DNA of 64,000 nucleotides. It comes from an uncultured Lachnospiraceae bacterium. Lineage in GTDB: Bacteria; Bacillota; Clostridia; Lachnospirales; Lachnospiraceae. The translations under genes and the position numbers were made by a program. Under the pieces are notes generated by a model. That model had not been told where the DNA came from. It made no database searches and saw only the letters and a list, made by a program, of their open reading frames with translations. The stretch is from the NCBI GenBank assembly GCA_947174665.1, contig CAMWJV010000005.1:356-64355 (forward strand). The letters are read 5' to 3'. Shown piece after piece: positions 15,179 through 60,408 of this stretch. Positions within the stretch are counted from its first letter, which is position 1, and the number at the start of each line of letters is the position of its first letter.

Positions 15179-15247
15179 TGACATTTCACCCCGTTCTTTC
15201 TTTTATGCCGCCAAAAAGGCATAGCACAGCACAATAGTGCATCGTCT

Positions 15248-15429: not shown

Positions 15430-15800
15430 TTTGCAGTAGCAAGCAGGATACGTATAGCGCAATAGTCAACTGCTCCCTGCCAGTTGTACAGACCGTAGTG
15501 GTCTTTAAATTGACCTTCCCACCGGAAACATAAGCCACTCCCTCTGCCGCATCCGACAGCATGACATGTTCCGCTACACCCAGCCAGCTGCCCTTATTCC
15601 CCGGCTGTTCCCCTTGTTTCCTGCTGTTTTTTTACGGTTATTTGGCACCTGCTCAAACCCATTGCTGCTGGAGGGCTTGGAGAAGTTGGAGGAATCCTTT
15701 GCGATCTGTGATTTTAAGCGCAGTATCTCCTTGTCTTTTCTGATGCCAATCCCGACAGGGGAACGGCTGATTTTGTCATAGCTTTCTTCCACAGTCTCTT
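15430..15800 (-). pseudogene. IS66-family transposase N-terminal relic (DUF6444-like), frameshifted/deleted
   Basis: RLKSQIAKDSSNFSKPSSSNG matches the IS66 N-terminal KxSxNSSKPPSSDG motif; a shifted frame continues GEQPGNKG (GGQPGHKG-like); no DDE domain; boundaries approximate. Confidence 0.7.
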
Positions 15801-15862
15801 TTTATATATAAGACGCAAGTAAATTCAGCACCAATGCCTACCCTCTTTTCTCAATAAGAATA

Positions 15863-17302: not shown

Positions 17303-17422
17303 AACTATAGTTCCGCCTTTCTGCGAAAGGCACCAATTAGGGAATGAAACCCGCAATCAATAGCATTCCGCTTAATGTTTTTCTTTGTTATATTCCTTTT
17401 CTGTTTCATTATTTTATCAATT

Positions 17423-43105: not shown

Positions 43106-44824
43106 CTACGATTCCATCTTGTTTACTACAGTTGCTAAAATACTGCCCCATGATGTAAGTAGATTTTCAAGCATTGTAGAATTCTCATCCGAAAAACTCG
43201 CAAATGCCTTCGCATAACTTAAAAGCAGTAACATAATTGCATCCTTTATTTTGCTTTTTTCATTGGTTACAGTTGTAGTATCCTCTTTGGTAATATCCCC
43301 GCATAATGGGTTAATGATATTTTTATAAAAAGGATGATTTACATTAAGTTTGATAATAACTTTGTTCCCCAACAAGAATTCTGGTTCAAATAGAATTGAC
43401 TGTGGATATTTTACCGGCACTACTGAATATGGTTTATTCAGTAACTGTTCCTTCTTTTCTTCCTTTTTATCTTCTGCATCATCCAATGTCTGGTCTAAAA
43501 TTTCGTTAATCTTCTGGTCTTCTTCTTCCTTGGACATTGATTTTCCTGCTTTGTTTGCCGGAAGCAATGCATCTACATCTCCCATTAAATTCTCAGCATT
43601 ATCAAATGCACTAGCTTTTTGATTATTTTCCGCCTTTTGCTGTGCTCTATCGCCTTTAATCGTCTTTCGCAATGATTTAACAGCTGATGTCAATTCTTCT
43701 CTTAAACGATCTTTTAATGGACCGATCGGTTCGGCTCCGCGTTTAATGTATCTTACTTGAAAACATTCATCTAATTCAGGCGGAAATAATATTTCACATC
43801 CCCAAAAACGATCATTTTCCTCATAGGAATACTGTCCTTTTGTTCCAATAAGATAAGGAACTTTATCATATAACACCTCTCTATTGGCTCTCAAAATTGA
43901 AACGCCTTCATTTTGATCAATCTTACGCTTCTTTGCTTCTGCCTTTCCTCCATCCCCAATATTTAAGCGCCATTCCTTAGGAAGCAACGATAAACGAATT
44001 GTAATTGGCGCCTTTTCTCCAGACATACCAGGAATATCCCAATCCAATGTTGTCTGACTATACAGCACTGCTTTAGGATCTTGCTTCTCTTTTGTATCAA
44101 ACTGAGTAGGACCCGCAATATAAAGTGGATCATGTAAGCAAACCCGTCTTCCATCCAAATAAATCTGTAATCCACTTTCAATGAATTTGCGATATGTCCT
44201 GCCTAAGTAGTTAGCAATACTGGCATTAACCTCATTTGCATCCTGTCTTTTGCCGGTCCCATCTAGCCTGTCACAATTTGTTAAAATAACAACCGTTCCT
44301 GTATTGCCAAACATGTATTCCGCGTATTTTTCAGGCAATGCTCTATACTCTGGTTCAGGCATCTGCGTGATTTGTCCATTTGAAATCATATCCAAATCTA
44401 TAAATGTATATAGAAAATCTTTCTTTTCATCATCTCTTGAAAAAACTTCAACTCTACGTGCCAAAGAAATGCTGCCCAATGTCATTCCCACACCAAATCT
44501 TCCTATGCCCATTCTTCCATTTCGTTTCACTCGCATGGAACACCCCAAAACAAGGCATTTTTTAATTACATCCTCGTTCATTCCGCACCCATCATCTACA
44601 ACTACAATACTACCCACAGCCTCGGTCTCTCGCTTGCCATTTTTAACTTTTTTCTTTTCAAAAAACACATTAATATGTCGAGCTCCTGCTTCAACGGAGT
44701 TATCAACAATTTCCCCCAATCCATTCTCTGTTGAATAGTCATTATATCGCAATGACTCATACATTTTTGATATATTAATAAGTTCCTGTCTCGGCTTAAT
44801 AAAAACCATTTCATCATTCTGCAT
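43106..44824 (-). CDS. MORC-like GHKL ATPase (HATPase_c_3)
   Basis: EIVDNSVEA, DDGCGM, GRFGVGM, GTVVIL; C-terminal LNVNHPFY. Confidence 0.88.
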   Translation of the reverse strand: MQNDEMVFIKPRQELINISKMYESLRYNDYSTENGLGEIVDNSVEAGARHINVFFEKKKVKNGKRETEAVGSIVVVDDGCGMNEDVIKKCLVLGCSMRVKRNGRMGIGRFGVGMTLGSISLARRVEVFSRDDEKKDFLYTFIDLDMISNGQITQMPEPEYRALPEKYAEYMFGNTGTVVILTNCDRLDGTGKRQDANEVNASIANYLGRTYRKFIESGLQIYLDGRRVCLHDPLYIAGPTQFDTKEKQDPKAVLYSQTTLDWDIPGMSGEKAPITIRLSLLPKEWRLNIGDGGKAEAKKRKIDQNEGVSILRANREVLYDKVPYLIGTKGQYSYEENDRFWGCEILFPPELDECFQVRYIKRGAEPIGPLKDRLREELTSAVKSLRKTIKGDRAQQKAENNQKASAFDNAENLMGDVDALLPANKAGKSMSKEEEDQKINEILDQTLDDAEDKKEEKKEQLLNKPYSVVPVKYPQSILFEPEFLLGNKVIIKLNVNHPFYKNIINPLCGDITKEDTTTVTNEKSKIKDAIMLLLLSYAKAFASFSDENSTMLENLLTSWGSILATVVNKMES

Positions 44825-44860
44825 ATTTGCATCCTCCTAACATTTATTATATTTTGAGTC

Positions 44861-45042
44861 AAAAAAAGACCTCACATCGAAATGTAAGGTCTCATAAATA
44901 TACAAATAATAATCAAAACGCAAACTAGACCATCCCTTATAAGGACAACTCCAGCTATGACAAGATATTCATATTAAGGTTACCGATTAATTTGATATTC
45001 TATTCTCACAGAACTATGCCATGAGACCTTCAAATTCGATTA
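44861..45042 (-). promoter_or_regulatory. Leader RNA with alternative antiterminator/terminator upstream of the GHKL ATPase
   Basis: 5' arm 45021-45040 complementary to 44876-44895, which overlaps terminator AGACCUUACAU-UUCG-AUGUGAGGUCU-U6. Confidence 0.7.
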
Positions 45043-45048
45043 TGTTTA

Positions 45049-45077
45049 ATCATATACCATCATACTCATTTTGTCAA
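45049..45077 (-). promoter_or_regulatory. sigmaA promoter driving the leader and GHKL ATPase
   Basis: TTGACA-17 bp-TATGAT. Confidence 0.8.
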
Positions 45078-45161
45078 GTCATTTTTTCTAGATTTACGTT
45101 CTTTTATTTTTGGCAGTCTTGCATATCGAGTGATAACACGCCCATTATAACCCGCAATCCT

Positions 45162-46109
45162 TTATTTTTTTATCCTCTTAAGGATTAGATTGAGCCATTG
45201 TACCTCATCCCTATTCATTTTATCCACTGTATGCCAGAGTTCCGCAATCTCATATGCTGTACTTTTCGCTACTATTTGCTGTACATTTTCTTCCGAAAAA
45301 CTCGTAAAAAATCTTCCGTTAGAATCATATCCGTTATTGATCCCTTTCTTTATGGAGATATACAGCGCCCCGCCTGTTTGCAGATAATCCGAAACTTTAC
45401 ATATAAATTCTTCAATTTCATCAATACCAAGATGAAGCAAGGAAGCATTTGCCCATATCCCATCATACACCCTGGAAGGGCTCCAGTCCTGAATCTTCTC
45501 ATACTGAACATGAATGCCGGTATACTCTGTTGCCAACCTGCATAGTTCTTCTGAAGCATCTATTGCCTCAACATCAAAGCCTCTATCTTTAAAGTACTTT
45601 ACATCTCTGCCACTACCAGCACCAATATCAATTATCTTCCCACCAGGAATAACGTATTTGATAAACCTGTCACAGCATTCGGACATATCTACATCTACAG
45701 TATCCCGGAAATATTGATCTGCGTTTTGGTTGTAGTAGCTTATCGTCATATTATTCTTTCCATACTTCTCATAAATCTGTTCTGCTTCGGCGGTAATCTT
45801 ATCCGGATTGTTCAAATACTCCTGTACTATTTCTTTTTGGAGCTTTGTGCCCTGCATTCCAGAATACTGAGTTTCAGAATCCAAGCAGCGAATTCTACTA
45901 GACTGCATATGAATTCCAGCATAGTTTCTGAATATATCCGAAACCGGTACCCCTGTCAGCATTTCCTCACGATTTCTTAGGAATTCACTTATTCCTTGAT
46001 GGGTCTTCTGGATCTCCTCACTTGATAAATTCTTTGTTCTGAAGTATTCAACCACCAAAATAACAACTTCTTCCCTATCCCATTTGCGTTCCGTTCTTTT
46101 ATCACTCAT
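45162..46109 (-). CDS. Fusion: McrA-N-like helical domain plus class I (TehB-like) SAM methyltransferase
   Basis: N-terminal KWDREEVVILVVEY; from MTISYYNQNA: IIDIGAGSGRD, AIDAS, YDGIWANASLLH. Confidence 0.8.
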   Translation of the reverse strand: MSDKRTERKWDREEVVILVVEYFRTKNLSSEEIQKTHQGISEFLRNREEMLTGVPVSDIFRNYAGIHMQSSRIRCLDSETQYSGMQGTKLQKEIVQEYLNNPDKITAEAEQIYEKYGKNNMTISYYNQNADQYFRDTVDVDMSECCDRFIKYVIPGGKIIDIGAGSGRDVKYFKDRGFDVEAIDASEELCRLATEYTGIHVQYEKIQDWSPSRVYDGIWANASLLHLGIDEIEEFICKVSDYLQTGGALYISIKKGINNGYDSNGRFFTSFSEENVQQIVAKSTAYEIAELWHTVDKMNRDEVQWLNLILKRIKK

Positions 46110-47113
46110 TTTGCAATTACCGCCTTTGTTTCCGGCTTCCAGGTCCTATCATAGCCATTAATCTTTGCCCAGTTATATACATAGGTAATCATCCTGGACT
46201 GATAGTTCTGCATCTCCGGTCTGTGATACCCAATCAAAATATGCTGATTTCGATCAATAATATCCGTCAAATACTTTCCATCTGGCAACCTGTCGTTTTT
46301 CTTACGGTTACAAGTCGGACAAGATAATACTAGATTCCATAAATTATCATCTTTAATAAACGACCACGGAATAAAATGATCAACATCAATCTTATCCGGC
46401 TGCAAAGGTCTTCCACAATAAAAACAATTCTTGCTTTCAAATTCATCATAGAGTATCTGTCGATATGCTGAAAGATTGTTTCTCTTTGCACTTTCGTCTA
46501 TTTTATCAAGTAGCTTTGTTGCCACCGCTTCCTCATTTACCCGTTCAAGGAATCTGGCCCACTCATAATAGTTCAGTTTCTCTATAACTACCTTATGCTT
46601 GCATATGAACTCATACATTACTGAATTGATCTGTAACCATTCCTCTTTCTTTGAAAAAGAATAAAATAATCGATTGGTATCTTCGAACAATGCACCCACT
46701 ACATATTTTTTGCATTTAATCTTTACCTGATGAGAAATATCCAGCATCATTTCTGCCGTCAGGCTTTCATATGGTATCGGCTCAATTATGCGGTACTTAT
46801 CAACAGCGGCATGGAGCACCTGTTCGAGGTATGTCTCTCTATTATCATTTGTAGCAGCCTTCTGTCTTAACCCATACTTCAGAATCAGATTCCAGTATAT
46901 CTCTCCAAACTTGCTGAAGAGCTGATTGAAGGTCAGCTTTAAATCTTTATCAACATTATATAGATTATCTATTATTGCCTTTAAGAAACCATATTTGTAG
47001 CTTGAATCATTTCTCGATTTAGAAGAAAAAACGCATGAAAAAGCAGACCACAGCTCATCGTCTGAGGCATTTCTTGCTTCATATTTTCCTTCCTTCAAAT
47101 CAAAACCAGCCAC
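46106..47113 (-). CDS. HNH endonuclease with N-terminal 'SYK' helical domain
   Basis: NDSSYKYGFLKAI; CFYCG, DVDHFIPWS, WNLVLSCPTCNRKKND. Confidence 0.9.
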   Translation of the reverse strand: MAGFDLKEGKYEARNASDDELWSAFSCVFSSKSRNDSSYKYGFLKAIIDNLYNVDKDLKLTFNQLFSKFGEIYWNLILKYGLRQKAATNDNRETYLEQVLHAAVDKYRIIEPIPYESLTAEMMLDISHQVKIKCKKYVVGALFEDTNRLFYSFSKKEEWLQINSVMYEFICKHKVVIEKLNYYEWARFLERVNEEAVATKLLDKIDESAKRNNLSAYRQILYDEFESKNCFYCGRPLQPDKIDVDHFIPWSFIKDDNLWNLVLSCPTCNRKKNDRLPDGKYLTDIIDRNQHILIGYHRPEMQNYQSRMITYVYNWAKINGYDRTWKPETKAVIAK

Positions 47114-48132
47114 TACAAACCCCTCCGTTTCTTCAAGAGTTTTATCATTTCCTCAGGATTATCCAGCAAAGAGCAAGCTTCATCATCAGTAACGTCTTCA
47201 GTTTCATTATTTTCCTGGGCTGCTGCTATCGCCATTCGTTCATTCTCTGCTTCAACTTGTTCTGCCCAGTGCATCACCTCATCCGCCTCAAACAGCATCT
47301 CATATGTATTAATGCGATTAGATTTTATGAACGCAAGGCTTTCGCAAATTCTATCCAGTAAAGAAACAAAGCTTTCTTCCGGTGCATCGGAAAACATACT
47401 ACAATAGCGTTCCTTTTCTTTCGAAAAACTAACTCCCAGAGTGTTCTCTATAGCATCCAGATTATCAAGATATGACTGCCGGATTCCCCTTCGCCGTATC
47501 AGTATATCCTCATAACTTGGGCTATCATCTTGATCACACGAAATAATGCTTCGAACCTGCCCATAATAATCCATAAAGTTTCCAACATCGGCCGTATACG
47601 CAAATTCGTCTAATATCTGCTCAAATTGATATTCTTCTCTAATAGGATTCGACAATGCGCAATCATATTTTCCATTCTTGTCAAACACACGACACCCAAA
47701 GAAAACACTATCATCAGTCACAAAAAAGAAAATATTAAACCCGTCTAATGCTTTATTTACTATTTTTTCAAAAGCTACACACGATGTCACCGCATCATGT
47801 CCTACCGCTTCAATCTTAGTGGCTATCACTCTGCAAACCATGGCTCCCCGTCGCATGAACTTGTTAAAATCCGAATACATATATACACAATCTATTTTTT
47901 CTGTATAGCGAATTTCATCAGAGGAATAAACCTCTTTATCATCTCCATAGACAAAAACAAGTCGCTCCATATTACCAGCGTACTTGGGAGACTTCTCTGA
48001 AACAAGTCCCGCAGTTTCCAAAACACAGGTTATTGACTTCTCAGAGAATGCTTCTGAAACAAGTTCTACTGGTTCTATGCTGTCATGATATTCATCAATA
48101 TATTCGTAATTATCATCGTCATAGTAACCCAT
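47113..48132 (-). CDS. Acidic hypothetical protein of the defence operon
   Basis: 339-aa ORF tightly coupled to its neighbours; no motif recognised. Confidence 0.75.
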   Translation of the reverse strand: MGYYDDDNYEYIDEYHDSIEPVELVSEAFSEKSITCVLETAGLVSEKSPKYAGNMERLVFVYGDDKEVYSSDEIRYTEKIDCVYMYSDFNKFMRRGAMVCRVIATKIEAVGHDAVTSCVAFEKIVNKALDGFNIFFFVTDDSVFFGCRVFDKNGKYDCALSNPIREEYQFEQILDEFAYTADVGNFMDYYGQVRSIISCDQDDSPSYEDILIRRRGIRQSYLDNLDAIENTLGVSFSKEKERYCSMFSDAPEESFVSLLDRICESLAFIKSNRINTYEMLFEADEVMHWAEQVEAENERMAIAAAQENNETEDVTDDEACSLLDNPEEMIKLLKKRRGL

Positions 48133-48142
48133 ATCATCATCT

Positions 48143-48697
48143 CTATTTGTTTAGTATTTTATCAATTCCTGCCTTCAGTGCCTCACCGTCCTGCTCTTCA
48201 TTAAACATATTTGTATATTGGTACATCTTCAAAAGATATGCATCCCTATCGATACACTCATCCACAAACTGCTCATGAAGAACCTCTACTCCACCAAGAA
48301 AATACTCATTAAAAATCTGCATATTCTCAGCTACCATCGCCTTATCTTCCTCTGTTTTTTCAGAGAAATTGAATGCCCGGTAAATCCTTTTTTCTGTATC
48401 CGGCTCTGACTCTTCATCTATCAGCATCAGAATCTGATAAATATATTTCAGCTCACCGCTTCTTTTAACAATCTGTTCCGCGAGGATACCTACATCACCA
48501 TCTGCGGCGCTCCCCATTTTTCCCTTTCGGCTATACTGGTATCCAATTAAAGGACATAGGATATAGGCATCAATATAAGCCTTAAAAATCTTAAAGTTGT
48601 TATGCTGATCTTTATCAGCAACATTTCCTCGCAATTCACACAAGTCTTTAAGGTAATTGGCATGAACACCTGTGATATCAAAATTTGTGTTAAACAT
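48143..48697 (-). CDS. Small partner of the SMC-ATPase (PbeD/DndE-like position)
   Basis: FKAYIDAYILCPLIG...FNEYFLGGVEVL pattern; directly after the ATPase. Confidence 0.55.
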   Translation of the reverse strand: MFNTNFDITGVHANYLKDLCELRGNVADKDQHNNFKIFKAYIDAYILCPLIGYQYSRKGKMGSAADGDVGILAEQIVKRSGELKYIYQILMLIDEESEPDTEKRIYRAFNFSEKTEEDKAMVAENMQIFNEYFLGGVEVLHEQFVDECIDRDAYLLKMYQYTNMFNEEQDGEALKAGIDKILNK

Positions 48698-48710: not shown

Positions 48711-50708
48711 CTATCTGATATGTGTTGCTGTATCTATTTCTTTACCTTCGACATCCTTGTCTTTCGTTATGCTGTAGCTCTTACCAACATATTCTCCGAG
48801 ATTTACAGCAGCATACTCCCAGTCTTTCTGCATAACAGCCATTATCACCTGATTAGCAGTCTTCGGAAGTATTTTACAGATATTATCAATATGAATTTCA
48901 TCCACGTTTGAGAATGGTGCGTCCATAACAAGTGGATATACCTGACCTAACTGCATTTCCTCATCATCAAGTATTCTGTCCTTGGCCATTGATACAAGGC
49001 TCGCTATAAAAGCAAAGCTCTTAACCGCCTTTAATCCGTCTGACTCTTCTGTAGTAATATCGCTATACTTAACACGATATTTGTCATCGATTGTAATAGA
49101 TCTCTCGCCATGATACATTTTTGCAAAATTAGAATTAACTCGCCGCTGTAATTCATAACGCACCGTATCTTCTTTCGCTTTATATGTATCTGAAAGCCAC
49201 TCTTGAACCATTGATACATATGTAATATATCGCACCAGCCGACTGTTTTTTGTGCTACTCTTTGCAAACTTGGCAATAGCATCCTCACAATTTCTAATAT
49301 CTCTCTGGCACCCTCCTATGTCTATAACCGCCTGATCATAATCGGATTTTGCTTCTAAATACTTTGTGTGAGCCTCGTGGCGTTTATTTTCTATGGTTTT
49401 TGCGTCCGTATCATCAATAATCAGTTTTGACTTCTCTCCTGCTTCATCCTGTAGTTCTCCAATATGGCGCTGTATCCCTCGAATCTCCTTATACTTTTCC
49501 TCTATATCGGTAAAAAAAGATTCACTACCGGAAAGATATCCTTCTGCCTTGTTCTTATAGTTCATAACCACCGCGCCTATAGTCTCTGGTGGCAGCTTCC
49601 TTCTTTCCTGCATCACCAGTTGGTATGGCTGACTTCCAGGATCGAGATGTGTGCCACAAATACATATTTTTCTGTTTATTAAATAATCAATGGAGTCCTG
49701 GTTCATTCCGGGAACACATTCAACCTGATCATTAATTTCCTGTAAAACCTCCAAAGATTTTTTTATAGATGGCATTCCAAAGAATGCATATGGTCTTTTG
49801 TTAAACAAATCAACATATGCTCTAATGGCATTTTCCAGACGAATTTCCTCGTTAATCAATGCCTTTGATATTCTATCTCTTTCCTCTTTTGCTTTCTTTA
49901 CCTGTTCAACATTGCTTTTTGAAAGCTCAACATTATATTCGCTCTCTTGCTTCTGATAGTATTCCATTTCAGCCTGAGCGTTATCTCTGGTTTCTTTGTA
50001 TTGCTGAAGCTTCTTATTTGCTGTTCCTAAACTATCCTGTGCAGCTTGCGCTTTAGCATCTCCCGACGTATCAATATTGCTCGAAAATTTCTTTAACGCC
50101 TCCTTTATATGATCGCGAGCATTTTCCAAAACATCCAGGCGCATGAGCCCTCGAACAGCATTCGAAAGATCCGTCCTATTTGCAATTCCTGATATTCGTT
50201 CTCCTCCAAAAAAGAAATAATCCGAAAGGTCTTGCGGCAGTACCCTATCTATTGATTCCGATATATTTTCTCTCCGTATGTCAGTCTTTGTTTGACCATC
50301 TGCCTGCAAATATGTAAGGGACAAATCTTCCTCCGGCTTTTTATTCAACCCCACAAATAGTTTTCCATCAGCCCTGGTTCGCTCATTACACAGGTATGTG
50401 TACTTTCTTTTAAGCGTATACATCTTGTCGCCGTTGGAATCCTGATGCGAAAAAGTAACCGCAACCCATACCTCTTGCATATCGCCAACATTCATGTTAT
50501 CACGCACTTCACTGTTAAGAAGAACTGGATCTTCAAACCCGTTTTTAGCATAAAAGCACCACTCAAACGCCCGAATAATCGTCGTTTTACCTGAGGTGTT
50601 TACACCAATGAGCACAGTAACATTTTTATCCAAATCAGTAGAAAACTCAACTTCTTGTAAGCCAATGTACTGTCTAAAGTTATACATTTCCAGCTTATGA
50701 ATAATCAT
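48711..50708 (-). CDS. SMC/Rad50-like ABC ATPase with CxC hook (PbeC/DndD-like)
   Basis: NFRQY, GVNTSGKTT Walker A, FFFGGE, central CICG, VMDAPFS Walker B/D-loop, coiled coils. Confidence 0.88.
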   Translation of the reverse strand: MIIHKLEMYNFRQYIGLQEVEFSTDLDKNVTVLIGVNTSGKTTIIRAFEWCFYAKNGFEDPVLLNSEVRDNMNVGDMQEVWVAVTFSHQDSNGDKMYTLKRKYTYLCNERTRADGKLFVGLNKKPEEDLSLTYLQADGQTKTDIRRENISESIDRVLPQDLSDYFFFGGERISGIANRTDLSNAVRGLMRLDVLENARDHIKEALKKFSSNIDTSGDAKAQAAQDSLGTANKKLQQYKETRDNAQAEMEYYQKQESEYNVELSKSNVEQVKKAKEERDRISKALINEEIRLENAIRAYVDLFNKRPYAFFGMPSIKKSLEVLQEINDQVECVPGMNQDSIDYLINRKICICGTHLDPGSQPYQLVMQERRKLPPETIGAVVMNYKNKAEGYLSGSESFFTDIEEKYKEIRGIQRHIGELQDEAGEKSKLIIDDTDAKTIENKRHEAHTKYLEAKSDYDQAVIDIGGCQRDIRNCEDAIAKFAKSSTKNSRLVRYITYVSMVQEWLSDTYKAKEDTVRYELQRRVNSNFAKMYHGERSITIDDKYRVKYSDITTEESDGLKAVKSFAFIASLVSMAKDRILDDEEMQLGQVYPLVMDAPFSNVDEIHIDNICKILPKTANQVIMAVMQKDWEYAAVNLGEYVGKSYSITKDKDVEGKEIDTATHIR

Positions 50709-50866
50709 TTTTTATCCACCTCCTGCATGATAAGTTTATATATCTTATCAATCATAGCAGCCCTAGACTCTTTTTTTACTATGTTATCAGTCTCAGCCTC
50801 CAGAATTCTCAGTTTGATTGTATCGAGCTTCTTCTCATCTATTTCATCATTCAAATTCGTCACCAT
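50705..50866 (-). CDS. Unannotated 53-aa protein MVTNLNDEIDEKKLDTIKLRILEAETDNIVKKESRAAMIDKIYKLIMQEVDKK (PbeB-like position)
   Basis: Manual translation; GGAGGG RBS inside the helicase 3' end; its TGA overlaps the ATPase ATG (ATGA). Confidence 0.75.
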   Translation of the reverse strand: MVTNLNDEIDEKKLDTIKLRILEAETDNIVKKESRAAMIDKIYKLIMQEVDKK

Positions 50867-53009
50867 CGCATGCACCCTCCAATTCTTCCGTGGTTATTGA
50901 ATATGCCGATTCAAGATCATTTATAAGATCATCTGAGTCTCTAGAGTTCTTTGCAATCTCCCCGAACTCCTTAATTCTCAGCAGTTCCCTTCTAGCCAAC
51001 GCCCTCTCACAATTGTAGCCTGGGCTATATGGATTCACTTCATCCAATGGTCGTGTTAATGTCACGAAATCATATATAACAGCATATGGTTTATCTTTCG
51101 CTAATCTCAGCACTCTTCCGCGGCGCTGAATATATTCTTTCGGATTTGTCGTACTAGCAAGTATGAACGCTGTTTTTATACTTGGAATATTAACGCCTTC
51201 ATCCAAACACTTTATGGCTACAATCGCCTGATACGGTTCCGCCATTGCAAATCGTCTTTTTATTACATCCCTTTCCTCTGCAGATTCGTTAGCAGTAAAA
51301 TGCGTTACCTTCATTCCGAACTCATTACCGAGAATCTTGGAGACCGCAACAATCTGTCTTTCGCCCTCTTCATCTACTTCAGATACATCCGCATCAAAGG
51401 TCTGTACTCTTGTAGCACCGCAGTATACAAGCATATGCGTGTCATCTTTATACTTTTTCATAAGATCACGTAACGCATCCAGCTTAGACTTTGCCCCAGC
51501 AACTATCCTGGCCCTTTGCAAAAGAAGACTCTTTCCCTTTTCCGTAATGTTCAGCTTTCCATGCTTATTTCTGTGACATTCCTTGGATGCCAAATAGGAT
51601 ATTTCCTTATATCTTTCAAGTTCTTCATTATCGAGATGCACCAATACCGGATAATAATAATACGGGGTCAGCTTTTTCTCTTTAATAGCTCGATTTAAAT
51701 CATACTCAATACACTTCTCACCAAAATAATCCTTTAAGCACTGTGTTCCCTCTTCATCTCCGTGTCGGTCAAGAGTGGCCGATAGAGCTAATCTATAATC
51801 AATATTTTTATATAATCTTTTTCTCAAAGTGGTTGAACCAAAATTATGTGCTTCATCCACCAGAAGCAATGTATCAGCCCCCAGCTTTGACATCTGCTCC
51901 GTCACAAACTTTGAAGAATACGTCGCATTAGTCGTAACAAAACAGAATGTGTCAATTATTCCGATAGAAAAGTCTATCACATCATTTTCAAGCCGCTTCT
52001 TCCAATTCTTCTGCTTTGATGCTGAGTAGCCTATCGCCGGAAGCATATTAAATAATTCTATATCTTCAACCCATTGCTCAACCAAATGCTGATATGGACA
52101 TACTATTATAATTGCCAGCCTTTTCTTTTCCTCAAATAGCCTTACAACAGCACCCAATCCCGTATATGTCTTACCTGTTCCGGTCGCCATGTCAAAAATA
52201 CCGCGATATCCATGATCTCGCCAAGACTCTATCGCACCAACTTGATATTCTCTCAATATGAAGCCATCTGGTAACTTGGGAAATCCTTTTTTCACCTCGG
52301 GTTTTGTTTCTTCTTCCTCTTCATCTATTTCTAGATTGAGTTTTTCCTTCCTTCTAACCCGGAACTTTTCCCTTACCACTTCTGGAAACTCTATTACTTC
52401 AAGGTCCTTATCCTGATCATTCCATAACAGTTCGAAATCGTGCTGCATTTCGTCAGCATAGTCTTTTGATTCTTCCCATGAATTAAAAACAACAATCGAC
52501 TCATAGTTGTTATGGAATGCATTTAAAGTTTCATTTAACGATCCGGTAAAAACCACTTTGTTTCCATATTCGTCAGTAACTATACCTACTTTCTCATGGT
52601 ACATGCCCATCTCTTTGTTTGGTGGTGTAAATGCCACCTTGATTTCCAGAAACCCTTCTTCTATAAGGTATGCCAGCCAGTTTAAACGTTCCTCCTGAAA
52701 ATAATTCTCCGGTTCGCGGAACTCCCGCATAAGAGCTTCACCAATTATTTCCTTTTTTTCATATCCTTTATTGATTGCATCAATATCCTCTTGGGACAAA
52801 AGCGGAGAAACAATAAACTGTATACGTCCCTTGTTTTTTATCATCCCCGATATTCCTTTTGTCAGATCAATCAACGCTGTTGACGAAAAGTATCCAACCG
52901 CACGCTGGTAAAGCACCGCTTCTTTCAGAACCGGTGTGTAGAATTCTTTAATAATGTCGTTCTTATATGTCTTATAATGCTTCAGAAGCGTTAAATCCTT
53001 AAATGACAT
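50847..53009 (-). CDS. PLD-like nuclease plus SF2 helicase (PbeA-like, phosphorothioation-associated restriction enzyme type)
   Basis: RAVGYFSS, YHEKVG...FTGSLNET (PLD); MATGTGKT, VDEAH, LALSAT, CLDEGVNIP, QRRGRVLR. Confidence 0.88.
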   Translation of the reverse strand: MSFKDLTLLKHYKTYKNDIIKEFYTPVLKEAVLYQRAVGYFSSTALIDLTKGISGMIKNKGRIQFIVSPLLSQEDIDAINKGYEKKEIIGEALMREFREPENYFQEERLNWLAYLIEEGFLEIKVAFTPPNKEMGMYHEKVGIVTDEYGNKVVFTGSLNETLNAFHNNYESIVVFNSWEESKDYADEMQHDFELLWNDQDKDLEVIEFPEVVREKFRVRRKEKLNLEIDEEEEETKPEVKKGFPKLPDGFILREYQVGAIESWRDHGYRGIFDMATGTGKTYTGLGAVVRLFEEKKRLAIIIVCPYQHLVEQWVEDIELFNMLPAIGYSASKQKNWKKRLENDVIDFSIGIIDTFCFVTTNATYSSKFVTEQMSKLGADTLLLVDEAHNFGSTTLRKRLYKNIDYRLALSATLDRHGDEEGTQCLKDYFGEKCIEYDLNRAIKEKKLTPYYYYPVLVHLDNEELERYKEISYLASKECHRNKHGKLNITEKGKSLLLQRARIVAGAKSKLDALRDLMKKYKDDTHMLVYCGATRVQTFDADVSEVDEEGERQIVAVSKILGNEFGMKVTHFTANESAEERDVIKRRFAMAEPYQAIVAIKCLDEGVNIPSIKTAFILASTTNPKEYIQRRGRVLRLAKDKPYAVIYDFVTLTRPLDEVNPYSPGYNCERALARRELLRIKEFGEIAKNSRDSDDLINDLESAYSITTEELEGACDGDEFE

Positions 53010-53029: not shown

Positions 53030-53224
53030 TTATTCCAGCACTTCAAAATCCATATCGCCCATAATATCCTTTGCTTTTTCGTCTGATGTTTCCACACACA
53101 CTCCACAATAAGCCTTATCCTGAACCGGAGTAGGTACCACCTTGCATTCTATATTTTCATTATTAAGTATTTCTTCTGCTTTAAAGACATCGCTTGTGCT
53201 ATAAAAAACAATATGCATATACAA
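53030..53224 (-). CDS. DUF3343-family small protein (putative S/Se carrier)
   Basis: IVFYST...KAE..L...I....VPTP......CG pattern; abuts the desulfurase stop. Confidence 0.75.
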   Translation of the reverse strand: MYMHIVFYSTSDVFKAEEILNNENIECKVVPTPVQDKAYCGVCVETSDEKAKDIMGDMDFEVLE

Positions 53225-54346
53225 TCACCTGCTTCTTAACGTATCCAAGAGCTGATCTATCTCAGCCTTTTTATTTTTATAATTCAAACTGATTCTTACC
53301 GCCCCAGATTCAACAGTCCCTATTGCTTCGTGTGCCAAAATAGCGCAATGAATACCACCCCGAGCGCATATTCCTTTGCTATCTAAAAGCGAAATGGTTT
53401 TGTCCGAAGACAAATCATCTATCGTAAAGCAACAGGTAGCCACCCGCTCATTCTCTATGTCGTACACCTTTACCCCATCTATGTCTGTCAGCCCTTGAAG
53501 CAGATAGGTCATCAGCGCCTTCTCTTCTCTTCTTATAGTATCAGAATGCGCCGTTATAAATTCTATCCCCGTCTTAAGCGCCCAAATAGCAGGCATATTC
53601 AATGTCCCTGCTTCATATCCTTCCGGGAAAATGTCCGGATTCACATAATTTTCCCCATGTATACCAGTCCCCCCTTGGATCAATGGTATGAAATGCGCTT
53701 TTGACTCACAGCACAATCCGCCCACGCCCGGAATACCATACAAATCCTTATGACCTGTGAATGCCAAAAAATCGATTTGAGACTCTGTCATGTTCAAAGC
53801 CAATTTTCCGGCACCCTGCGAAGAATCAACAAAAGTAATAATGCCCTTTGTATGAAAGAATTTCATCCAATCTTCTTTATATATAATTCTTCCTGTCAGG
53901 TTACTTGCCAACGTCAACGCTAACATCCGCGTATTTTCATTTGCATATTTTTCAAGAAGAGTATCCGCCTCCAACCCCAAATCCTCTCTGCTTATGACAG
54001 AGTAGTCAATGATTCCTTTTTGTTTGAGGTCTTGTAATGGTCTTAGAACGGCGTTATGTTCGTAGCATGAAATAATTACATGATCACCTTTTTTCAGAAG
54101 TCCTTTAAACAGTAAGTTTATTGCTTCCGTTGAATTCTTTGTAAAAACCACTCTTTCAGGATGAGACATGCCAAAATACTTTCCCACCGCTGTCCGTGAT
54201 TTATAGAGCATACGGGAAGCCTCTATCCCAAGAGAATAGCTTCCTCTCCCTGGACTCACGCCAACATCACGAAGGTAATAGTTCACTGCCTCAATGACTT
54301 CATCCGGCTTATATTTAGTTGTAGCGGCATTATCAAAATATATCAT
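53225..54346 (-). CDS. Cysteine desulfurase, group II (SufS/Csd-like) (SspA role)
   Basis: IYFDNAATT, EHNAV, DSSQ, FTGHK, EAGT, RGGIHCA; start 54346 overlaps the upstream TGA. Confidence 0.92.
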   Translation of the reverse strand: MIYFDNAATTKYKPDEVIEAVNYYLRDVGVSPGRGSYSLGIEASRMLYKSRTAVGKYFGMSHPERVVFTKNSTEAINLLFKGLLKKGDHVIISCYEHNAVLRPLQDLKQKGIIDYSVISREDLGLEADTLLEKYANENTRMLALTLASNLTGRIIYKEDWMKFFHTKGIITFVDSSQGAGKLALNMTESQIDFLAFTGHKDLYGIPGVGGLCCESKAHFIPLIQGGTGIHGENYVNPDIFPEGYEAGTLNMPAIWALKTGIEFITAHSDTIRREEKALMTYLLQGLTDIDGVKVYDIENERVATCCFTIDDLSSDKTISLLDSKGICARGGIHCAILAHEAIGTVESGAVRISLNYKNKKAEIDQLLDTLRSR

Positions 54347-55944
54347 TGAGTACCTTTCCTTGACGACAAAACATCGCACATAATGCAGCCATTGTAGAAC
54401 TTAGCAATACAGTGTTTACAATGCTGACATTTCTTATCGTCAATCGTATATTTCCCATGAATAGTATCAATCGCACCATATGGACAAGTTGAATCGCATG
54501 CTGAACATCTAATACAAAACTGATATTTACGCATTTGGCACTTAATTCTATTCACAAGGTTCGTCGCATCGATTCGTTCTTCCGGCAATAACTTTATTAC
54601 CGTTGTTCCATATGTAAGGATTAGTTCACATATCTTTCTGTACTCTCCAGATTTATCTTTGTCAGAAATCTGAACATATGTAGCATCCTTTTTTTCAATA
54701 ACCTTCAAATCTCCTAAAGGTTTGAACAGTTCCAACACATCTTTCTGAAGTTTCTTTTCAATAATTACATTTCTCGCACGATCTGACAGATTACAAGGTG
54801 TATCCGCAATAGTAACATTTTTATCCTTCAGACCACTGGCACCTCTACGTATTCTCCATTTGCCCTCTTCATAATAATTATCAGGATCAGTCTTACCAGT
54901 GCGCTCCGCGAACTCGTATACCATATCCTTCCATCTTTGCATGTCTTCCGGATGATATATCTCGGTAAGCATCATCGACCAATCAGAATTGTTAGGGCAA
55001 CACCAACATCCAACTCTCTTATAGCCATACTGGTAGCAATCGTTTATCAAAAGGTCTTTTGCCAATATGTAAAGCCAAACATCATAATCTGTCCATTCAA
55101 TAATCGGCATCGCATTTACTTGCGAAGATATCTTCGAAGTTTCCTGCGTCCTGTTATATCCAGCTCTGGCAACAGATTCGCTATGTCTTATACCAAGAAA
55201 TGTCAAGCTATTCCCCGGAAGATTATCATACTCTTTATTCAGGTTACTCGTTTTAAATATCGTACAGCACCAACGCTCATGCTGGCTTGGTGGTCCGAAC
55301 ACTTTACATAGCTTAAAAAAGTCATTGTCCGTCTCGCTGGGAATCATAGGTACCCTTGGATTCTCTCTCCTGAACTTCTCGGTAACATATGTGTATGTTT
55401 CCTTGAATTCTAATGTTGTATCCCCAAACATATGGATGACAGTATTATCCTGCAAGGCATCCATTACAAGCCTGCTCACCACGGTCGAATCTTTTCCTCC
55501 GGAAAAAGAAACTGTGGGTATATAATTATCTCCCTTGTATTTGTTCAAGGAATTTACAATATATTGTTCTGCCTCATATACCAGCTGATTGAGATATACC
55601 TCGTTGGCCTTAACAACGGAAATATATGGAGAATAATCCCTATCAACCTCTATGTTGTTTCTTAACTCTTCTGCTACCACTAAATGTTTTTTAGCTTTGT
55701 ACCATTCTCTATATGGTATCTTAACTATTTTCTCGTCGATATAGTATTTACTTGCTCCCAAATACCAAATACTCTGATCACCATAATCACAGCCCATGAT
55801 CTTCTCCAGCAATTTCCTTTCTTGCTTGAATACCGGATTGCATATGGAGCCTACAGATATCTTTACTGATTCTCCATCACAGGAGCAACTATGCAAGCCT
55901 TTATCGAACACCGGGGTCTTGCATTTTTTGCACCAATAAATCAT
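54343..55944 (-). CDS. PAPS-reductase-family PP-loop protein with C-terminal ferredoxin (SspD/DndC-like)
   Basis: SFSGGKDS, DTTLEF, RWCC, GIRHSES, RVGCWCCP; N-terminal CKKC..CSC; C-terminal CIRCSACDSTCP and CQHCKHC. Confidence 0.9.
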   Translation of the reverse strand: MIYWCKKCKTPVFDKGLHSCSCDGESVKISVGSICNPVFKQERKLLEKIMGCDYGDQSIWYLGASKYYIDEKIVKIPYREWYKAKKHLVVAEELRNNIEVDRDYSPYISVVKANEVYLNQLVYEAEQYIVNSLNKYKGDNYIPTVSFSGGKDSTVVSRLVMDALQDNTVIHMFGDTTLEFKETYTYVTEKFRRENPRVPMIPSETDNDFFKLCKVFGPPSQHERWCCTIFKTSNLNKEYDNLPGNSLTFLGIRHSESVARAGYNRTQETSKISSQVNAMPIIEWTDYDVWLYILAKDLLINDCYQYGYKRVGCWCCPNNSDWSMMLTEIYHPEDMQRWKDMVYEFAERTGKTDPDNYYEEGKWRIRRGASGLKDKNVTIADTPCNLSDRARNVIIEKKLQKDVLELFKPLGDLKVIEKKDATYVQISDKDKSGEYRKICELILTYGTTVIKLLPEERIDATNLVNRIKCQMRKYQFCIRCSACDSTCPYGAIDTIHGKYTIDDKKCQHCKHCIAKFYNGCIMCDVLSSRKGTQ

Positions 55945-55956: not shown

Positions 55957-58900
55957 CTAACCAATAATCTCCTTCATAATCTCGGTCAAAATCGAAATCT
56001 TCTCTTCATAGCTGATAGATTCTCCAAAATCACCCAATGTGTTTTTCATCTTCTTCAGCATAGTCTTTCCCGTAGCAGACAATTTCTCATGAGAAAACTG
56101 AGTAATCAAAGGAACTCCATCCGCAGATTCAATGGTAATTTTCATCTCGCCCTGCTGCAGACCATCTTCCGGATTATACTCATTCAATTTATTAACAACA
56201 TCTCTAAGGATTTCCTCAAAATCATTAATCTTGTTATCCGCCCAATATGTAAGTTCAAAACCCGTCGTTGCTTTTGCAAGTTCCAAAACAAAATGCTCTT
56301 CATCCATCTCGGATGATCTCGAAACAAGATCAAGAACATTGTTTGTTGTGTAATCAAATGCTTTCTGGCTTTTCTCTTCCCACTCATCACGATACATATT
56401 CTGCATATGCTGAATCAAATCATCCGAGTCATCTACGTCAAACACCTGCTTAATCACACGCACAACTCTTATATATAATTTTTCGCCTACAGATTCCAGT
56501 TCTTCCTTTATGTTTCCAATCTGAATCACAAGTTCCTGCAAATCACTATTTAGCCGTGGCAACATCTCAAAGAAGAACGCATTGTAGTCCTTATACGAAA
56601 TATTAAGTATATTTCTGTACTCCTTTGCCAATTCAGAAATATACACTTCTGTGGTTCTTGCACTCTTAGAAATCGAAGCATAATGTGTGTTAATAGCTCG
56701 GAACAATTCTTCTAATCTATTAAGTCCATCTCCCTTTGGGAGATAATCAGCGAACAGTTTTTCCAGCCCCTCAATATATGTGCTCTCTTCTTCATTCCAG
56801 TTACAAATAAATAATGTATAGTTCTCTGGCTCAGATAATGCTTTAACCAGTTCTTCCTCTGTATACGAATGTTCATTGCCATGGAAATACAGAGAAACAT
56901 TCTGATAATCACGTAATGCATACGCAAGTAAAACAGGAATTACCCCGTCCCTCAATCCGTATGGTTCCGTTTTTAGCATTTCATATAACTCACTCAATGC
57001 AAGACGTTCACTTCCTGCTCTACGCAGTTTTCGCTGAATGGCATTCATCACCGGATTCCCTGACACTGTGTGCCTCTCATCTGGCAAATAATTCAAGGAT
57101 TCCTCTGCTATGCGATTTTCCTCTTTTACCGTATTGTTGTCTGCGATTCCGGTCTTGGATAATGTGGCTCTCAGAATATTGTACTCTGGCGACAGCGTAG
57201 AACATCCATCATATATATCCTCTTGCCACATGATACATTCTATTGCTTTCTTCCGCGCAAGTCTGATAGCACCTGTCAGGTTATTCTTGTTTAGCAAATC
57301 ATTGTTTACCCTAGGCGTTCTGTTAAATGTAGCATCCATAATATCTGAAAGCACATCAGAAAGCTCCTTCTCAGATGCGACCTCAATGAGGCTGCCGCTA
57401 TTTATTACAAACGTTCCCGGATCCCGAAGCATTCTCCACTTACGGATTAACTCATTGACAATAGCTTCCTGTTCGCTTGAGTATAACGATAATTCATTGA
57501 CGACAGTTGGGTCATCCTCAGCAAGTTCCTCTTTCTTGGAATAAAAATACTGAAGTGCAATATAACGCTTTACTTCTTCCTCAACTGCTTTTGATTTTCC
57601 GTTAACGACAAGAAGTGTACGCTTAGGCAAACCTAACATCTGAGCATATTCTTTTTCATCTGCCTGATCATCCAGAACAAAAATTACAGTGCCATCATAA
57701 TACTTCGGTAATGTATTATGAAAAGACTTCTTGGTTAACTCACCCTTGGTTGCAAAGGCTGGAATAAAAACTCGATTAATGTAATAAGTTTCATTGTATC
57801 TGTATGGATATAACGCAAAATCAGCGAATTTCTCGTTCAAAATCCGAACTACCATTTCATCATTAATGCTAGGGAGTTTATCCTCTATCATCTTCTCCAA
57901 ATCAAATATGCTACTATCAAAATAATCATAGTACCCATATTGACGCATGTATTTAATGATCTTTTTCTTTTCAAGACTCTCAATTGCATTTGACACTTCT
58001 TGTTGATCGCCATCAATCACACAACACAAAGTATCTCTATCGGCAATCAGCACATCTGTATCAGCTATTATGCTGATTACTGCCATTGTCTTCAGTATCT
58101 TTATTTGATATCCCTTTTTATCAGTTCCAAGCTTATTCAATGCATACTGAAGTTTTTTGTATACGGCATAGGCTTCATCCGTCTTGAAAGACTTTATATT
58201 CAGTTCGAAATAATCATATATGGCATCAAGCCCAATAAAATGGAACTCTTTAATATTATAGTTTTGCAGCTGTGAAAACAAAGTATTGTCTTCGTCGCCA
58301 GCCAGATACGTAAAAAATGTACGCTCGTTCTGTGCCACCTTTTTTGATAATCTATCAAGTGCAAAAAGCGTTATGGGATGGAGCGGGAACCCATCCTCAA
58401 ACGCCGAACCCCCATTCGTTTCCGGCGGAAGCATGAATCCCTTAAAATCCCATGCCTGGCTATATAAATTATTTAAAGTCTTTTCGAACTTATTCTTAAA
58501 TGTTTTCCAGTGAGACTGGTTCTTCGGAATAATATTACCAATAAGTGACAGGCATTGGTCATATTTTATATTAATAGAAGTTGCCTTAAATCTACCCTCA
58601 ACCTTTTTCCACTCATCACTGATGCTCTTTTTCATTTTACTGGTATAAAGCGACAGCTGCTTGTGTGAAACCAGAATCAAATGATTATCATAATCCGAGT
58701 GATCACAATATTCGGCCAAATCCTGAACGGATTTAACTTTAAGAACTTCTCCATAATCTTCTACATATCGACCAAATTCATCAAAGACAAGCACAATGCC
58801 CCTATACGTATCCTTGATCGCCTCATTGGCATAATTCATATTATCTATAAGGTTCCCCGCCGTGCTATTAAATGCTGCGCCATAGGACATACCTGAATAT

Positions 58901-59520
58901 ACCCTGTTAAATATCTTTTCATACGAAGCATTGTAATATGATAAGCCCTTTATCAGTTCCTCTACCGTTGTCTTCTGTTTTTTACATACTTCTGTCATTC
59001 TCACTGACGATTCCTTGCCTGCATTCCACTTTTTTACCAGTGCAAGCGCTTCATCAAAAAAACCTTTAAAAGACACCTGAATATTATTTCTTTCCAATTC
59101 CTTCTTCAGCGAAAAAGAAATGCACTTTCCAAAATCATCATAGTCCGAATAAACTGGTACAACCATGTACGGTTTCTTCTCTTTGGCAAATTTGCAAATA
59201 TCTGCAACAAGTTCCTTATCATAGTTTGCAATTAGTTTAGTAAAACTCTTAAATCCCTCTCCCTTGATGTTTATATGCCCCAAAACCGCACTTATCACCG
59301 TCAACAAATGTGATTTGCCGGTACCATAAGAGCCGTAGAGTATTCTGGAATGAATATCAGAATTACCACGGATTATCCCACCTAGGTATTCTCTGATTAT
59401 TTCCGTCGTTGTAATGTTCGGGATAAAACCCGCAATCCTTTCTTCATCTCGAAGATCAAAACAGATATTCACAGAATACTTATATTGCTTTTTCTTTGAA
59501 ACCAGTTTTGTATAATCCAT
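55957..59520 (-). CDS. Large P-loop ATPase (SspC/BrxC-like)
   Basis: GSYGTGKSH Walker A, LVFDEFGRY Walker B, FPLHP, QNERTFFTYL, L...PYGL. Confidence 0.85.
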   Translation of the reverse strand: MDYTKLVSKKKQYKYSVNICFDLRDEERIAGFIPNITTTEIIREYLGGIIRGNSDIHSRILYGSYGTGKSHLLTVISAVLGHINIKGEGFKSFTKLIANYDKELVADICKFAKEKKPYMVVPVYSDYDDFGKCISFSLKKELERNNIQVSFKGFFDEALALVKKWNAGKESSVRMTEVCKKQKTTVEELIKGLSYYNASYEKIFNRVYSGMSYGAAFNSTAGNLIDNMNYANEAIKDTYRGIVLVFDEFGRYVEDYGEVLKVKSVQDLAEYCDHSDYDNHLILVSHKQLSLYTSKMKKSISDEWKKVEGRFKATSINIKYDQCLSLIGNIIPKNQSHWKTFKNKFEKTLNNLYSQAWDFKGFMLPPETNGGSAFEDGFPLHPITLFALDRLSKKVAQNERTFFTYLAGDEDNTLFSQLQNYNIKEFHFIGLDAIYDYFELNIKSFKTDEAYAVYKKLQYALNKLGTDKKGYQIKILKTMAVISIIADTDVLIADRDTLCCVIDGDQQEVSNAIESLEKKKIIKYMRQYGYYDYFDSSIFDLEKMIEDKLPSINDEMVVRILNEKFADFALYPYRYNETYYINRVFIPAFATKGELTKKSFHNTLPKYYDGTVIFVLDDQADEKEYAQMLGLPKRTLLVVNGKSKAVEEEVKRYIALQYFYSKKEELAEDDPTVVNELSLYSSEQEAIVNELIRKWRMLRDPGTFVINSGSLIEVASEKELSDVLSDIMDATFNRTPRVNNDLLNKNNLTGAIRLARKKAIECIMWQEDIYDGCSTLSPEYNILRATLSKTGIADNNTVKEENRIAEESLNYLPDERHTVSGNPVMNAIQRKLRRAGSERLALSELYEMLKTEPYGLRDGVIPVLLAYALRDYQNVSLYFHGNEHSYTEEELVKALSEPENYTLFICNWNEEESTYIEGLEKLFADYLPKGDGLNRLEELFRAINTHYASISKSARTTEVYISELAKEYRNILNISYKDYNAFFFEMLPRLNSDLQELVIQIGNIKEELESVGEKLYIRVVRVIKQVFDVDDSDDLIQHMQNMYRDEWEEKSQKAFDYTTNNVLDLVSRSSEMDEEHFVLELAKATTGFELTYWADNKINDFEEILRDVVNKLNEYNPEDGLQQGEMKITIESADGVPLITQFSHEKLSATGKTMLKKMKNTLGDFGESISYEEKISILTEIMKEIIG

Positions 59521-59532: not shown

Positions 59533-60408
59533 CTATTCACTATAGTATTCATCCAGCAAACTATCATACTGGACATTTGAAAACTCAATAAACCTGTTTC
59601 CAAAGTTATTATTAAGTGTAAGAAGCTTTTTGTTCTCAGCTTCAAGAAGCATATCGATAAGCTTCGAATACCTCATGGGAAAATACTTACCTACTTGCCC
59701 CTTTTCTTCCATAAGCTTGTCTATGCTAATTTGCCCTCTATTACCACTTTCTTCAGGATTATCCATCGCAATCGCATAGACCAGAATAAGCAAAGGCATT
59801 TCCGCTTTGGTCAGGAATTTTTTTTCAATCTTCTTATCTTCATCAACACAAAGCAGGTGTAGCGGTGCCAACATTGGATAGGTGTCTTCATCCATTGCTG
59901 TTCGAATGTCAAACTTCTTCTCACCTATGTATGTATTCTTAAAGCAATTAAACTCCTTATCAACTGCCGCTTTCTTTATGGTCATTTCATTAACTGCAAG
60001 GAAATAATGCAAACCCTCAACAAACTCTTCCTTGGTAAAGGACTGCTTATCCATCTCGTTAAACGCCCAATACCATGCCGTAGCGTTTTCTTCGTTCAAT
60101 GCTATATTTCTATGCAGAAGCAACAAGCTTCCCAGTCTCTGAAAATACCTGTCATTTTTTGCCAGTAAATCAAATAACGGTGTCCTCTTCTCTGCGATAC
60201 CGCCCTGCACCTTTTCTTCTACCGTAAGGCCAGTTGCATCTGCCCAATACCTAAGCGCTCTTATCATGACACGTCCTAAGCCGATTTTATCAACCGCCTC
60301 CTGCTCATTAGCAGGCGAAAAAATCATATTGTCAGTTTCTACAGCTTGAATGATTTTTGTGCCCCAACCACTCCTAAGGTAAAAACTACCATGTTTATTA
60401 ACAACCAT
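59533..60408 (-). CDS. DUF4007-family protein (SspB-like)
   Basis: HGSFYLRSGW..K, GLGRVMIRALRYW, DRYF..LGSLLLLH, ATAWYWAFN. Confidence 0.88.
   Translation of the reverse strand: MVVNKHGSFYLRSGWGTKIIQAVETDNMIFSPANEQEAVDKIGLGRVMIRALRYWADATGLTVEEKVQGGIAEKRTPLFDLLAKNDRYFQRLGSLLLLHRNIALNEENATAWYWAFNEMDKQSFTKEEFVEGLHYFLAVNEMTIKKAAVDKEFNCFKNTYIGEKKFDIRTAMDEDTYPMLAPLHLLCVDEDKKIEKKFLTKAEMPLLILVYAIAMDNPEESGNRGQISIDKLMEEKGQVGKYFPMRYSKLIDMLLEAENKKLLTLNNNFGNRFIEFSNVQYDSLLDEYYSE

Follow-up and report, generated by a model that had tools for sequence, protein, structure and literature searches.

A cysteine desulfurase-DUF3343 gene pair as the putative sulfur-mobilising module of an SspBCD-type phosphorothioation operon in an uncultured Lachnospiraceae bacterium

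A stretch of 64,000 nucleotides from an uncultured Lachnospiraceae bacterium (GenBank assembly GCA_947174665.1, contig CAMWJV010000005.1, positions 356 to 64,355 of the forward strand) was analysed and is referred to below, at its full length, as the window. Its minus strand carries, between 50.8 and 60.4 kb, one tightly packed operon, SspB-SspC-SspD-desulfurase-DUF3343-PbeA, in which the gene for a group II cysteine desulfurase is followed by that for a small protein of the DUF3343 family. The best explanation for these two genes is that they form the sulfur-mobilising module of an SspBCD-type phosphorothioation (PT) system, which is linked with a restriction arm of the Pbe type. The system is of a known kind, of which the operon represents a variant. 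That Cys38 of the DUF3343 protein accepts a persulfide, which is then passed on to SspD, is a proposal which we hold with about even confidence.

The genes of the operon are closely coupled. Gaps of 12 nt separate SspB from SspC and SspC from SspD, the SspD stop codon and the desulfurase ATG overlap as ATGA, the desulfurase and DUF3343 genes are 6 nt apart, and 20 nt lie between the DUF3343 stop codon and the start of PbeA. The gene content of an SspABCD module (SspB, SspC, SspD and a desulfurase) is present in a single operon, with spacings of -4 to 12 nt. The desulfurase gene ends in AGGTGA, its final sense codon plus stop, and this ribosome-binding site is situated 6 nt upstream of the DUF3343 ATG.

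This arrangement is conserved. A scan of Clostridia with SspD gave 22 loci of the window type, of which 20 reached far enough to show the genes that follow SspD. In all 20, the desulfurase gene and then the DUF3343 gene lie between SspD and PbeA, with DUF3343 identities of 47-87%, and genomes G179 and G468 bring the adjacent pair to 22 of 22 loci. The hosts span the Lachnospiraceae, Oscillospiraceae, Acutalibacteraceae, Anaerovoracaceae and Eubacteriaceae; among them are the cultured strains [Clostridium] fimetarium DSM 9179 (L013) and Lachnospiraceae bacterium A4 (L015). An inserted gene separates SspD from the desulfurase in three loci, and the pair itself is split in none. It is evident that the adjacency of the two genes is not due to chance. 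In the window genome (G000; 82.7% complete) the operon copy is the sole PF11823 (DUF3343) gene, as it is in four of five other host genomes with a window-type locus, and PF11823 was found in none of five sampled genomes of the same family as the window genome. These results indicate that the island brings its own DUF3343. They are suggestive of an island that carries the gene only where the host lacks one, but the pattern is not clean: second PF11823 copies are present in G179, G468 and G589.

The product of the small gene belongs to Pfam family PF11823 (E value 2e-13; 50.1 bits against a gathering threshold of 25). Of the features given for it in a preliminary description of this DNA, the YCGVC motif stands, whereas the length of 64 aa, counted from a TTG start at 53224, does not. 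All 20 homologues from related loci start at the position corresponding to the ATG at 53218 (M/V-H/Y/N-I-V-F...); the TTG start is therefore probably wrong, and the ATG gives a protein of 62 aa. Residues F5, T8, F12, E15, P29, T30, P31 and C38 are invariant in 60 short-form sequences. Within YCGVC, the first cysteine alone (Cys38; codon 53105-53107) is invariant, the second (Cys41; codon 53096-53098) being serine in some homologues, and Cys38 aligns with the cysteine of the GC[GS] motif of 17 housekeeping PF11823 members. The median pairwise ratio of nonsynonymous to synonymous substitution rates (dN/dS) is 0.24 (74 pairs); the DUF3343 gene is a real gene under purifying selection. At least 300 clusters (90% identity) of the short form, nearly all of 62 aa, occur in public data, and those that have any name are called 'DUF3343 domain-containing' or 'hypothetical' only. 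The PT form is a distinct, trimmed subfamily of 62-66 aa, as opposed to the 71-117 aa of housekeeping DUF3343 proteins. An AlphaFold2 model (pLDDT 88) has a beta-alpha-beta-beta-alpha-beta fold in which Cys38 ends a conserved loop, residues 30-39. Sequence and profile searches of the PDB gave no match to the protein, and Foldseek searches with the model returned nothing at E values of 1e-3 or lower.

The RGGIHCA catalytic motif noted earlier in the desulfurase was confirmed (ICARGGIHCAIL), with the catalytic Cys334 encoded at 53345-53347 and the pyridoxal phosphate-binding Lys200, in TGHKD, at 53747-53749. The earlier assignment of the enzyme to group II is borne out by its NCBIfam ranking, by its closest structures and by alignment hallmarks. 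The NCBIfam scores were 357.2 bits for TIGR01977, 283 for SclA, 229 for SufS, 112 for DndA and 98-104 for IscS. The cut-offs for TIGR01977 (am_tr_V_EF2568) and SclA are 377 and 525 bits, respectively, so that the enzyme falls short of TIGR01977 membership, which the PT desulfurases of two other loci, L063 (409 bits) and L080 (493 bits), attain. It is called TIGR01977-like here since it scores below the cut-off, yet the tree described below puts its clade beside or within the TIGR01977 radiation. The closest solved structures are of the SufS type (5vpr, 3.5e-41), while SspA of Vibrio (6m4j) matched at just 1e-14 and in its N-terminal part alone.

Textbook traits of group II enzymes are a shorter catalytic loop and an insertion after the region of the pyridoxal phosphate-binding lysine (PMC8300815). 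Two diagnostic features were considered, namely a loop after the catalytic cysteine that is about 12 residues shorter in group II than in group I, and RxGHHCA (group II) versus SSGSACTS (group I) around that cysteine. NifS-type desulfurases are encoded elsewhere in the window genome. Aligned by MAFFT with the NifS among them (TIGR03402, 586 bits; motif SSGSACTS), the window desulfurase has 12 extra residues after GGTG and lacks 9 residues after Cys334. Both motif and loop are those of group II, the first histidine of the motif being replaced by isoleucine here and by leucine across the TIGR01977 radiation (RxGLHCAP). In a tree of the desulfurases, the window-type PT enzymes are monophyletic (SH-aLRT 100), the PT enzymes from operons without DUF3343 form a clade of their own (98) that is sister to the window clade (91), and both PT clades adjoin the housekeeping TIGR01977 radiation. 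Three Ssp desulfurases (L068, 7349-8485; L069, 7431-8576; L071, 7496-8692) have the motif RTGLQCAP, with glutamine in place of histidine beside the catalytic cysteine, which is unusual for group II enzymes.

SspD, the presumed acceptor and inserter of the sulfur, consists of an N-terminal cysteine ribbon, a PP-loop PAPS-reductase domain and a C-terminal two-cluster ferredoxin domain. Its best PADLOC match is BrxP of BREX type 4, which ranks above the SspD model. The invariant cysteine sets (226/227, 313/316 and two groups of the CxxCxxCxxxC type) leave room for up to three clusters and, judged from sequence, would fit a cluster-dependent sulfur-insertion enzyme. In the window clade and its sister clade, which also share the two-cluster ferredoxin domain at the C-terminus, the Cys5/Cys8/Cys22 ribbon at the N-terminus and the WCC and GCWCC motifs are invariant; Cys35 is invariant solely in the DUF3343-carrying clade.

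Type II desulfurases rely on specific acceptor proteins (PMC8300815). On the mechanism proposed here, the DUF3343 protein would be such an acceptor. The desulfurase would abstract the sulfur of L-cysteine and form a persulfide at Cys334, on a loop that is short and rigid, as is typical of group II enzymes. Co-translated DUF3343 would take over the persulfide on Cys38, at the end of the exposed, conserved PTPxxDKAYCG loop, in a role modelled on that of SufE, CsdE and SufU with other group II enzymes, and may also stimulate the desulfurase. It would then deliver the sulfur to the PP-loop/[4Fe-4S] enzyme SspD, by which it would be put on the DNA backbone. SspD is the expected end acceptor because SspA of Vibrio binds SspD directly (PMC7188994). 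The pair looks like a portable cassette, derived from a common Clostridial gene pair, that would free a defence island from the sulfur-trafficking proteins of its host.

A number of observations weigh against such a relay. A sample of the phylum (400 genomes) contained 24 other SspB loci. Seven of these belong to the Vibrio-like type with a short SspD and lack a neighbouring desulfurase gene; in 11 others the genes run long SspD-SspB-SspC-desulfurase, the last encoding a group II enzyme that bears RTGLHCAP or RTGLQCAP. No DUF3343 gene was found in any of the latter 11 sister operons, also with a broader hidden Markov model, nor do these operons offer another candidate for the acceptor, and PF11823 was absent from the whole of six of those 11 genomes, which are 99-100% complete. 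Direct transfer from a group II desulfurase to SspD must therefore be possible, and group II PT systems do not in general depend on the carrier; the preliminary argument that a group II enzyme would, as such, need DUF3343 fails on these operons. SufE, CsdE, SufU and TusA were absent among the Pfam, PDB, Foldseek and VIA matches listed for DUF3343, so that the protein, if it is a sulfur carrier, would more probably be an analogue of these proteins than a homologue. Its fold is a generic ferredoxin-like one, the VIA fold search having given matches of that kind only (best, the C-terminal domain of UreE, Z 6.9). No biochemistry for any DUF3343 protein was found in the literature. Finally, the adjacency of the two genes may just reflect the inheritance of a pre-existing pair. 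The candidate explanation that a DUF3343 domain is fused into the sister SspDs was rejected, as Pfam shows only PAPS_reduct and Fer4 in them.

The desulfurase-DUF3343 pair is indeed found outside PT loci. Of the 200 Clostridia genomes sampled, 139 encode a PF11823 protein and 155 have TIGR01977-type genes. An approximate, manual cross-match of the two position tables covered 150 listed TIGR01977-type genes: a PF11823 gene lies no more than about 210 bp away from 59 of them, and at a distance of 1-2.6 kb from a further 16. Of these pairs, 19 were confirmed from the sequence. Housekeeping DUF3343 genes are usually located upstream of the desulfurase gene or are divergent from it. The pairing is thus widespread in Clostridia and is not specific to PT. 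Lin et al. (2015) found that DUF3343 genes adjoin those of the Sec-lyase family and YedF in selenium-using organisms, and proposed that the protein, with its one conserved cysteine, is a selenium or sulfur chaperone (PMC5322559). TIGR01977 was described by Haft and Self (2008) as a probable selenocysteine lyase (PMC2276186). The earlier statement that DUF3343 genes occur near sulfur- and selenium-trafficking genes agrees with these reports. The view of DUF3343 as a shuttle dedicated to PT is not supported: the pair with the desulfurase is a general one, and a carrier role had been put forward in 2015 (PMC5322559). As to a new PT component, no mention of DUF3343, PF11823 or Se_S_carrier was found in the PT literature and no PADLOC model matches the protein. 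In terms of the co-occurrence suggested for analysis at the outset, the pair is present in 22 of 22 window-type loci and general in Clostridia, and DUF3343 is missing from the 11 sister operons.

PF11823 domains were also observed in long reading frames of 463 aa (G393:C1:2638232-2638435), 459 aa (G242:C29:66651-66848) and 344 aa (G359:C1:3131497-3131691). DUF3343 therefore occurs fused to larger proteins as well, and the fusion partners might reveal its client. Matches to PF11823 were also obtained in the control genomes of Escherichia coli and Methanocaldococcus jannaschii, and none in that of B. subtilis.

One further locus, L080 (G242:C21:5500-24000; 1364-18241, plus strand), is a single same-strand operon in which Ssp genes are combined with those of BREX type 4. 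Its genes are, in order, SspD, SspB, SspC, an SspB-like gene, a 205-aa gene, a 1324-aa SspC/BrxC-like ATPase, PglZ, BrxL, the desulfurase and DUF3343, a layout that differs from the brxPCZL described. The DUF3343 protein (71 aa) is encoded 5 nt after the desulfurase, at the end of the operon, and the desulfurase lies outside both PT clades in the tree, which suggests a second, independent recruitment of the pair. A broader proposal, for which our confidence falls somewhat short of even, is that DUF3343 is the dedicated persulfide acceptor of the whole TIGR01977 branch, a structurally new analogue of SufE, CsdE and SufU, and that the cassette has been captured by defence islands, possibly repeatedly (in the Ssp-Pbe clade and in the BREX4-like operon), which would make PT independent of sulfur trafficking in the host.

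Several other roles for DUF3343 were weighed against that of a relay to SspD. The protein may act on the desulfurase only, as an activator, gate or persulfide buffer that would speed up turnover or keep sulfide from leaking, with sulfur passing directly to SspD. DUF3343 accompanies TIGR01977-type desulfurases in PT, BREX4-like and housekeeping or selenium loci alike (PMC5322559), and the sister Ssp operons without DUF3343, together with the direct contact of Vibrio SspA with SspD, point the same way. A single invariant, loop-exposed cysteine is, however, the signature of a persulfide carrier and would be needless in an activator, and we consider this role unlikely.

It is less likely still that the pair matures the iron-sulfur clusters of SspD, with DUF3343 as a chaperone- or scaffold-like helper, and does not supply the sulfur for PT. 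The cysteine sets of SspD, with their room for up to three clusters, would accord with such a function, as would the closest folds, which are metallochaperone domains: UreE and, at Z of about 5, the HMA-type proteins GolB and HAH1. In addition, DndA is reported to assemble the cluster of DndC (You et al. 2007, as cited in PMC12914056). But the sister long SspDs share the same cysteine sets without DUF3343, one conserved cysteine is too few for a cluster unless the protein is an oligomer, and the fold matches are at the noise level for this fold class.

A similarly low probability is assigned to DUF3343 as a hitch-hiker, which would have come along with the desulfurase when a housekeeping pair was taken over and would add nothing to PT. 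The spread of the pair outside PT loci and the 11 Ssp operons that lack DUF3343 are what this would predict. Against it stand the retention of the gene in 22 of 22 loci over several families, its dN/dS of about 0.24, the invariant cysteine and the dedicated ribosome-binding site, as well as its status as the sole PF11823 copy in most hosts examined and as a distinct 62-66-aa subfamily with at least 300 clusters. Mobilisation of selenium by a selenocysteine-lyase-type enzyme and a selenium carrier, for a selenium-containing DNA modification, which the preliminary description had kept in view as a distant prospect, is highly improbable: selenocysteine lyase SclA is the second-best NCBIfam match of the desulfurase and selenium users show a link of DUF3343 with Sec lyase and YedF (PMC5322559), but the SclA score is far under its cut-off, no selenium-specific DUF3343 subfamily was found by Lin et al. 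(PMC5322559), the genome has no PF11823 gene beyond the operon copy, and no selD above cut-off was detected in that genome at 82.7% completeness, which makes the use of selenium unlikely.

The relay through DUF3343 to SspD remains the preferred reading, and the operon may be compared with known systems in its light. PT desulfurases have been described as type I (DndA, IscS, SspA; PMC8300815), and E. coli SufS and CsdA are unable to support Dnd modification (PMC3519819; PMC8300815). Relative to the Dnd and Vibrio Ssp literature, then, the arrangement in the window is non-standard, as had been claimed, but among long-SspD operons of Bacillota a group II enzyme is the norm: every long-SspD Ssp operon with a desulfurase in the 400-genome sample has a TIGR01977-type group II enzyme. 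No DUF3343 gene was found at eight DndC loci of that sample; the DndA genes at DndC loci matched the window enzyme far more weakly, with E values of 1e-18 to 1e-27, and two have the type I motif STGSAC. With the SspABCD system of Vibrio cyclitrophicus FF75 (SspA, 6M4J; PMC7188994) the window operon shares SspB, SspC, a PP-loop SspD and an operon-encoded desulfurase. It differs in that the desulfurase is a group II, TIGR01977-like enzyme, whereas SspA is filed under type I (PMC8300815), in the gene order B-C-D-A with an additional DUF3343 gene, in a long SspD that has a cysteine ribbon and a ferredoxin domain and scores best on BrxP, and in a restriction arm that is Pbe-like and not SspE or SspFGH.

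The pairs SufS-SufE, CsdA-CsdE and SufS-SufU resemble the window pair in that the gene for a short-loop group II enzyme adjoins that of a small protein with a single loop cysteine, and the trans-persulfuration proposed for the window pair would follow the same logic (PMC8300815). DUF3343 is about half the size of SufE, CsdE and SufU, and the matches listed for it show no sequence or fold similarity to them. The TIGR01977 (EF_2568/SclA-type) and DUF3343 genes of anaerobes (PMC5322559; PMC2276186) belong to the same families as those in the window and show the same adjacency and conserved cysteine. The window pair, in contrast, is situated in a DNA-modification defence operon, with a desulfurase of a separate clade, a DUF3343 gene that lies downstream and lacks the 15-25-aa C-terminal tail, and no selD, YedE or YedF context. 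BREX type 4 (BrxPCZL; PMC12914056) shares the BrxP-like SspD with the window, which, unlike it, has no PglZ or BrxL and encodes SspB and SspD separately. BREX4 systems published to date include neither a desulfurase nor a carrier of their own; the paper on them, alone in the PT literature covered, assumed a SufS donor, namely the group II SufS of the host in Bacteroides (PMC12914056).

The features of the operon are listed in Table 1. PbeC and further genes follow downstream of PbeA. A 56-aa open reading frame (50705-50875, minus strand) shares 29 nt with the end of PbeA and 4 nt with the start of PbeC, and may be a small Pbe component. The stretch 3' of PbeC (43106-48697, minus strand) encodes a 184-aa protein with a weak dnd_assoc_4 match, a 339-aa acidic protein, an HNH nuclease, a methyltransferase and a GHKL ATPase; the genes for the 184-aa and 339-aa proteins, the HNH nuclease and the methyltransferase recur 3' of PbeC in related loci, with variable completeness. 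Loci L012, L015 and L016 have an insert of about 2 kb between SspD and the desulfurase (about 11616-13700), which encodes a GHKL/HATPase-like protein 25-26% identical to the 572-aa HATPase of the window (43106-44824).

Table 1. Features of the window operon, with positions in the window and the evidence for each assignment
Feature	Position	Strand	Evidence
SspB (DUF4007)	59533..60408	-	Pfam PF13182 6.8e-55; PADLOC SspB 5.6e-44
SspC ATPase	55957..59520	-	PADLOC SspC 6e-112
Long SspD	54343..55944	-	Pfam PAPS_reduct 1.7e-33 and Fer4; PADLOC BrxP 2.4e-79, SspD 2.6e-13
Group II TIGR01977-like cysteine desulfurase in the SspA role, 373 aa	53225..54346	-	Profiles, structures, alignment, tree
AGGTGA ribosome-binding site of DUF3343	53225..53230	-	Read from sequence
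DUF3343 / PF11823 (Se_S_carrier), 62 aa	53030..53218	-	Pfam; start from homologues
PbeA-like PLD-helicase, first gene of the restriction arm	50847..53009	-	PADLOC PbeA 1.7e-245

Taken as a whole, a large group of Bacillota Ssp operons encodes a group II desulfurase, as against the type I enzymes of the PT systems described, and one widespread gut clade always adds DUF3343. Since no PADLOC model exists for DUF3343, attempts to reconstitute these Ssp systems of the gut in another host may fail when the 62-aa gene is omitted. The family is common, being present in 139 of the 200 sampled Clostridia genomes, and is uncharacterised. The dinucleotide output of PT offers a convenient read-out for assigning its function, for which the sister operons that lack DUF3343 provide a natural control, and the E. 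coli PF11823 member would offer an easy genetic entry point. If DUF3343 is indeed the acceptor of the TIGR01977 branch, the PT read-out would be the first easy genetic assay for this family.

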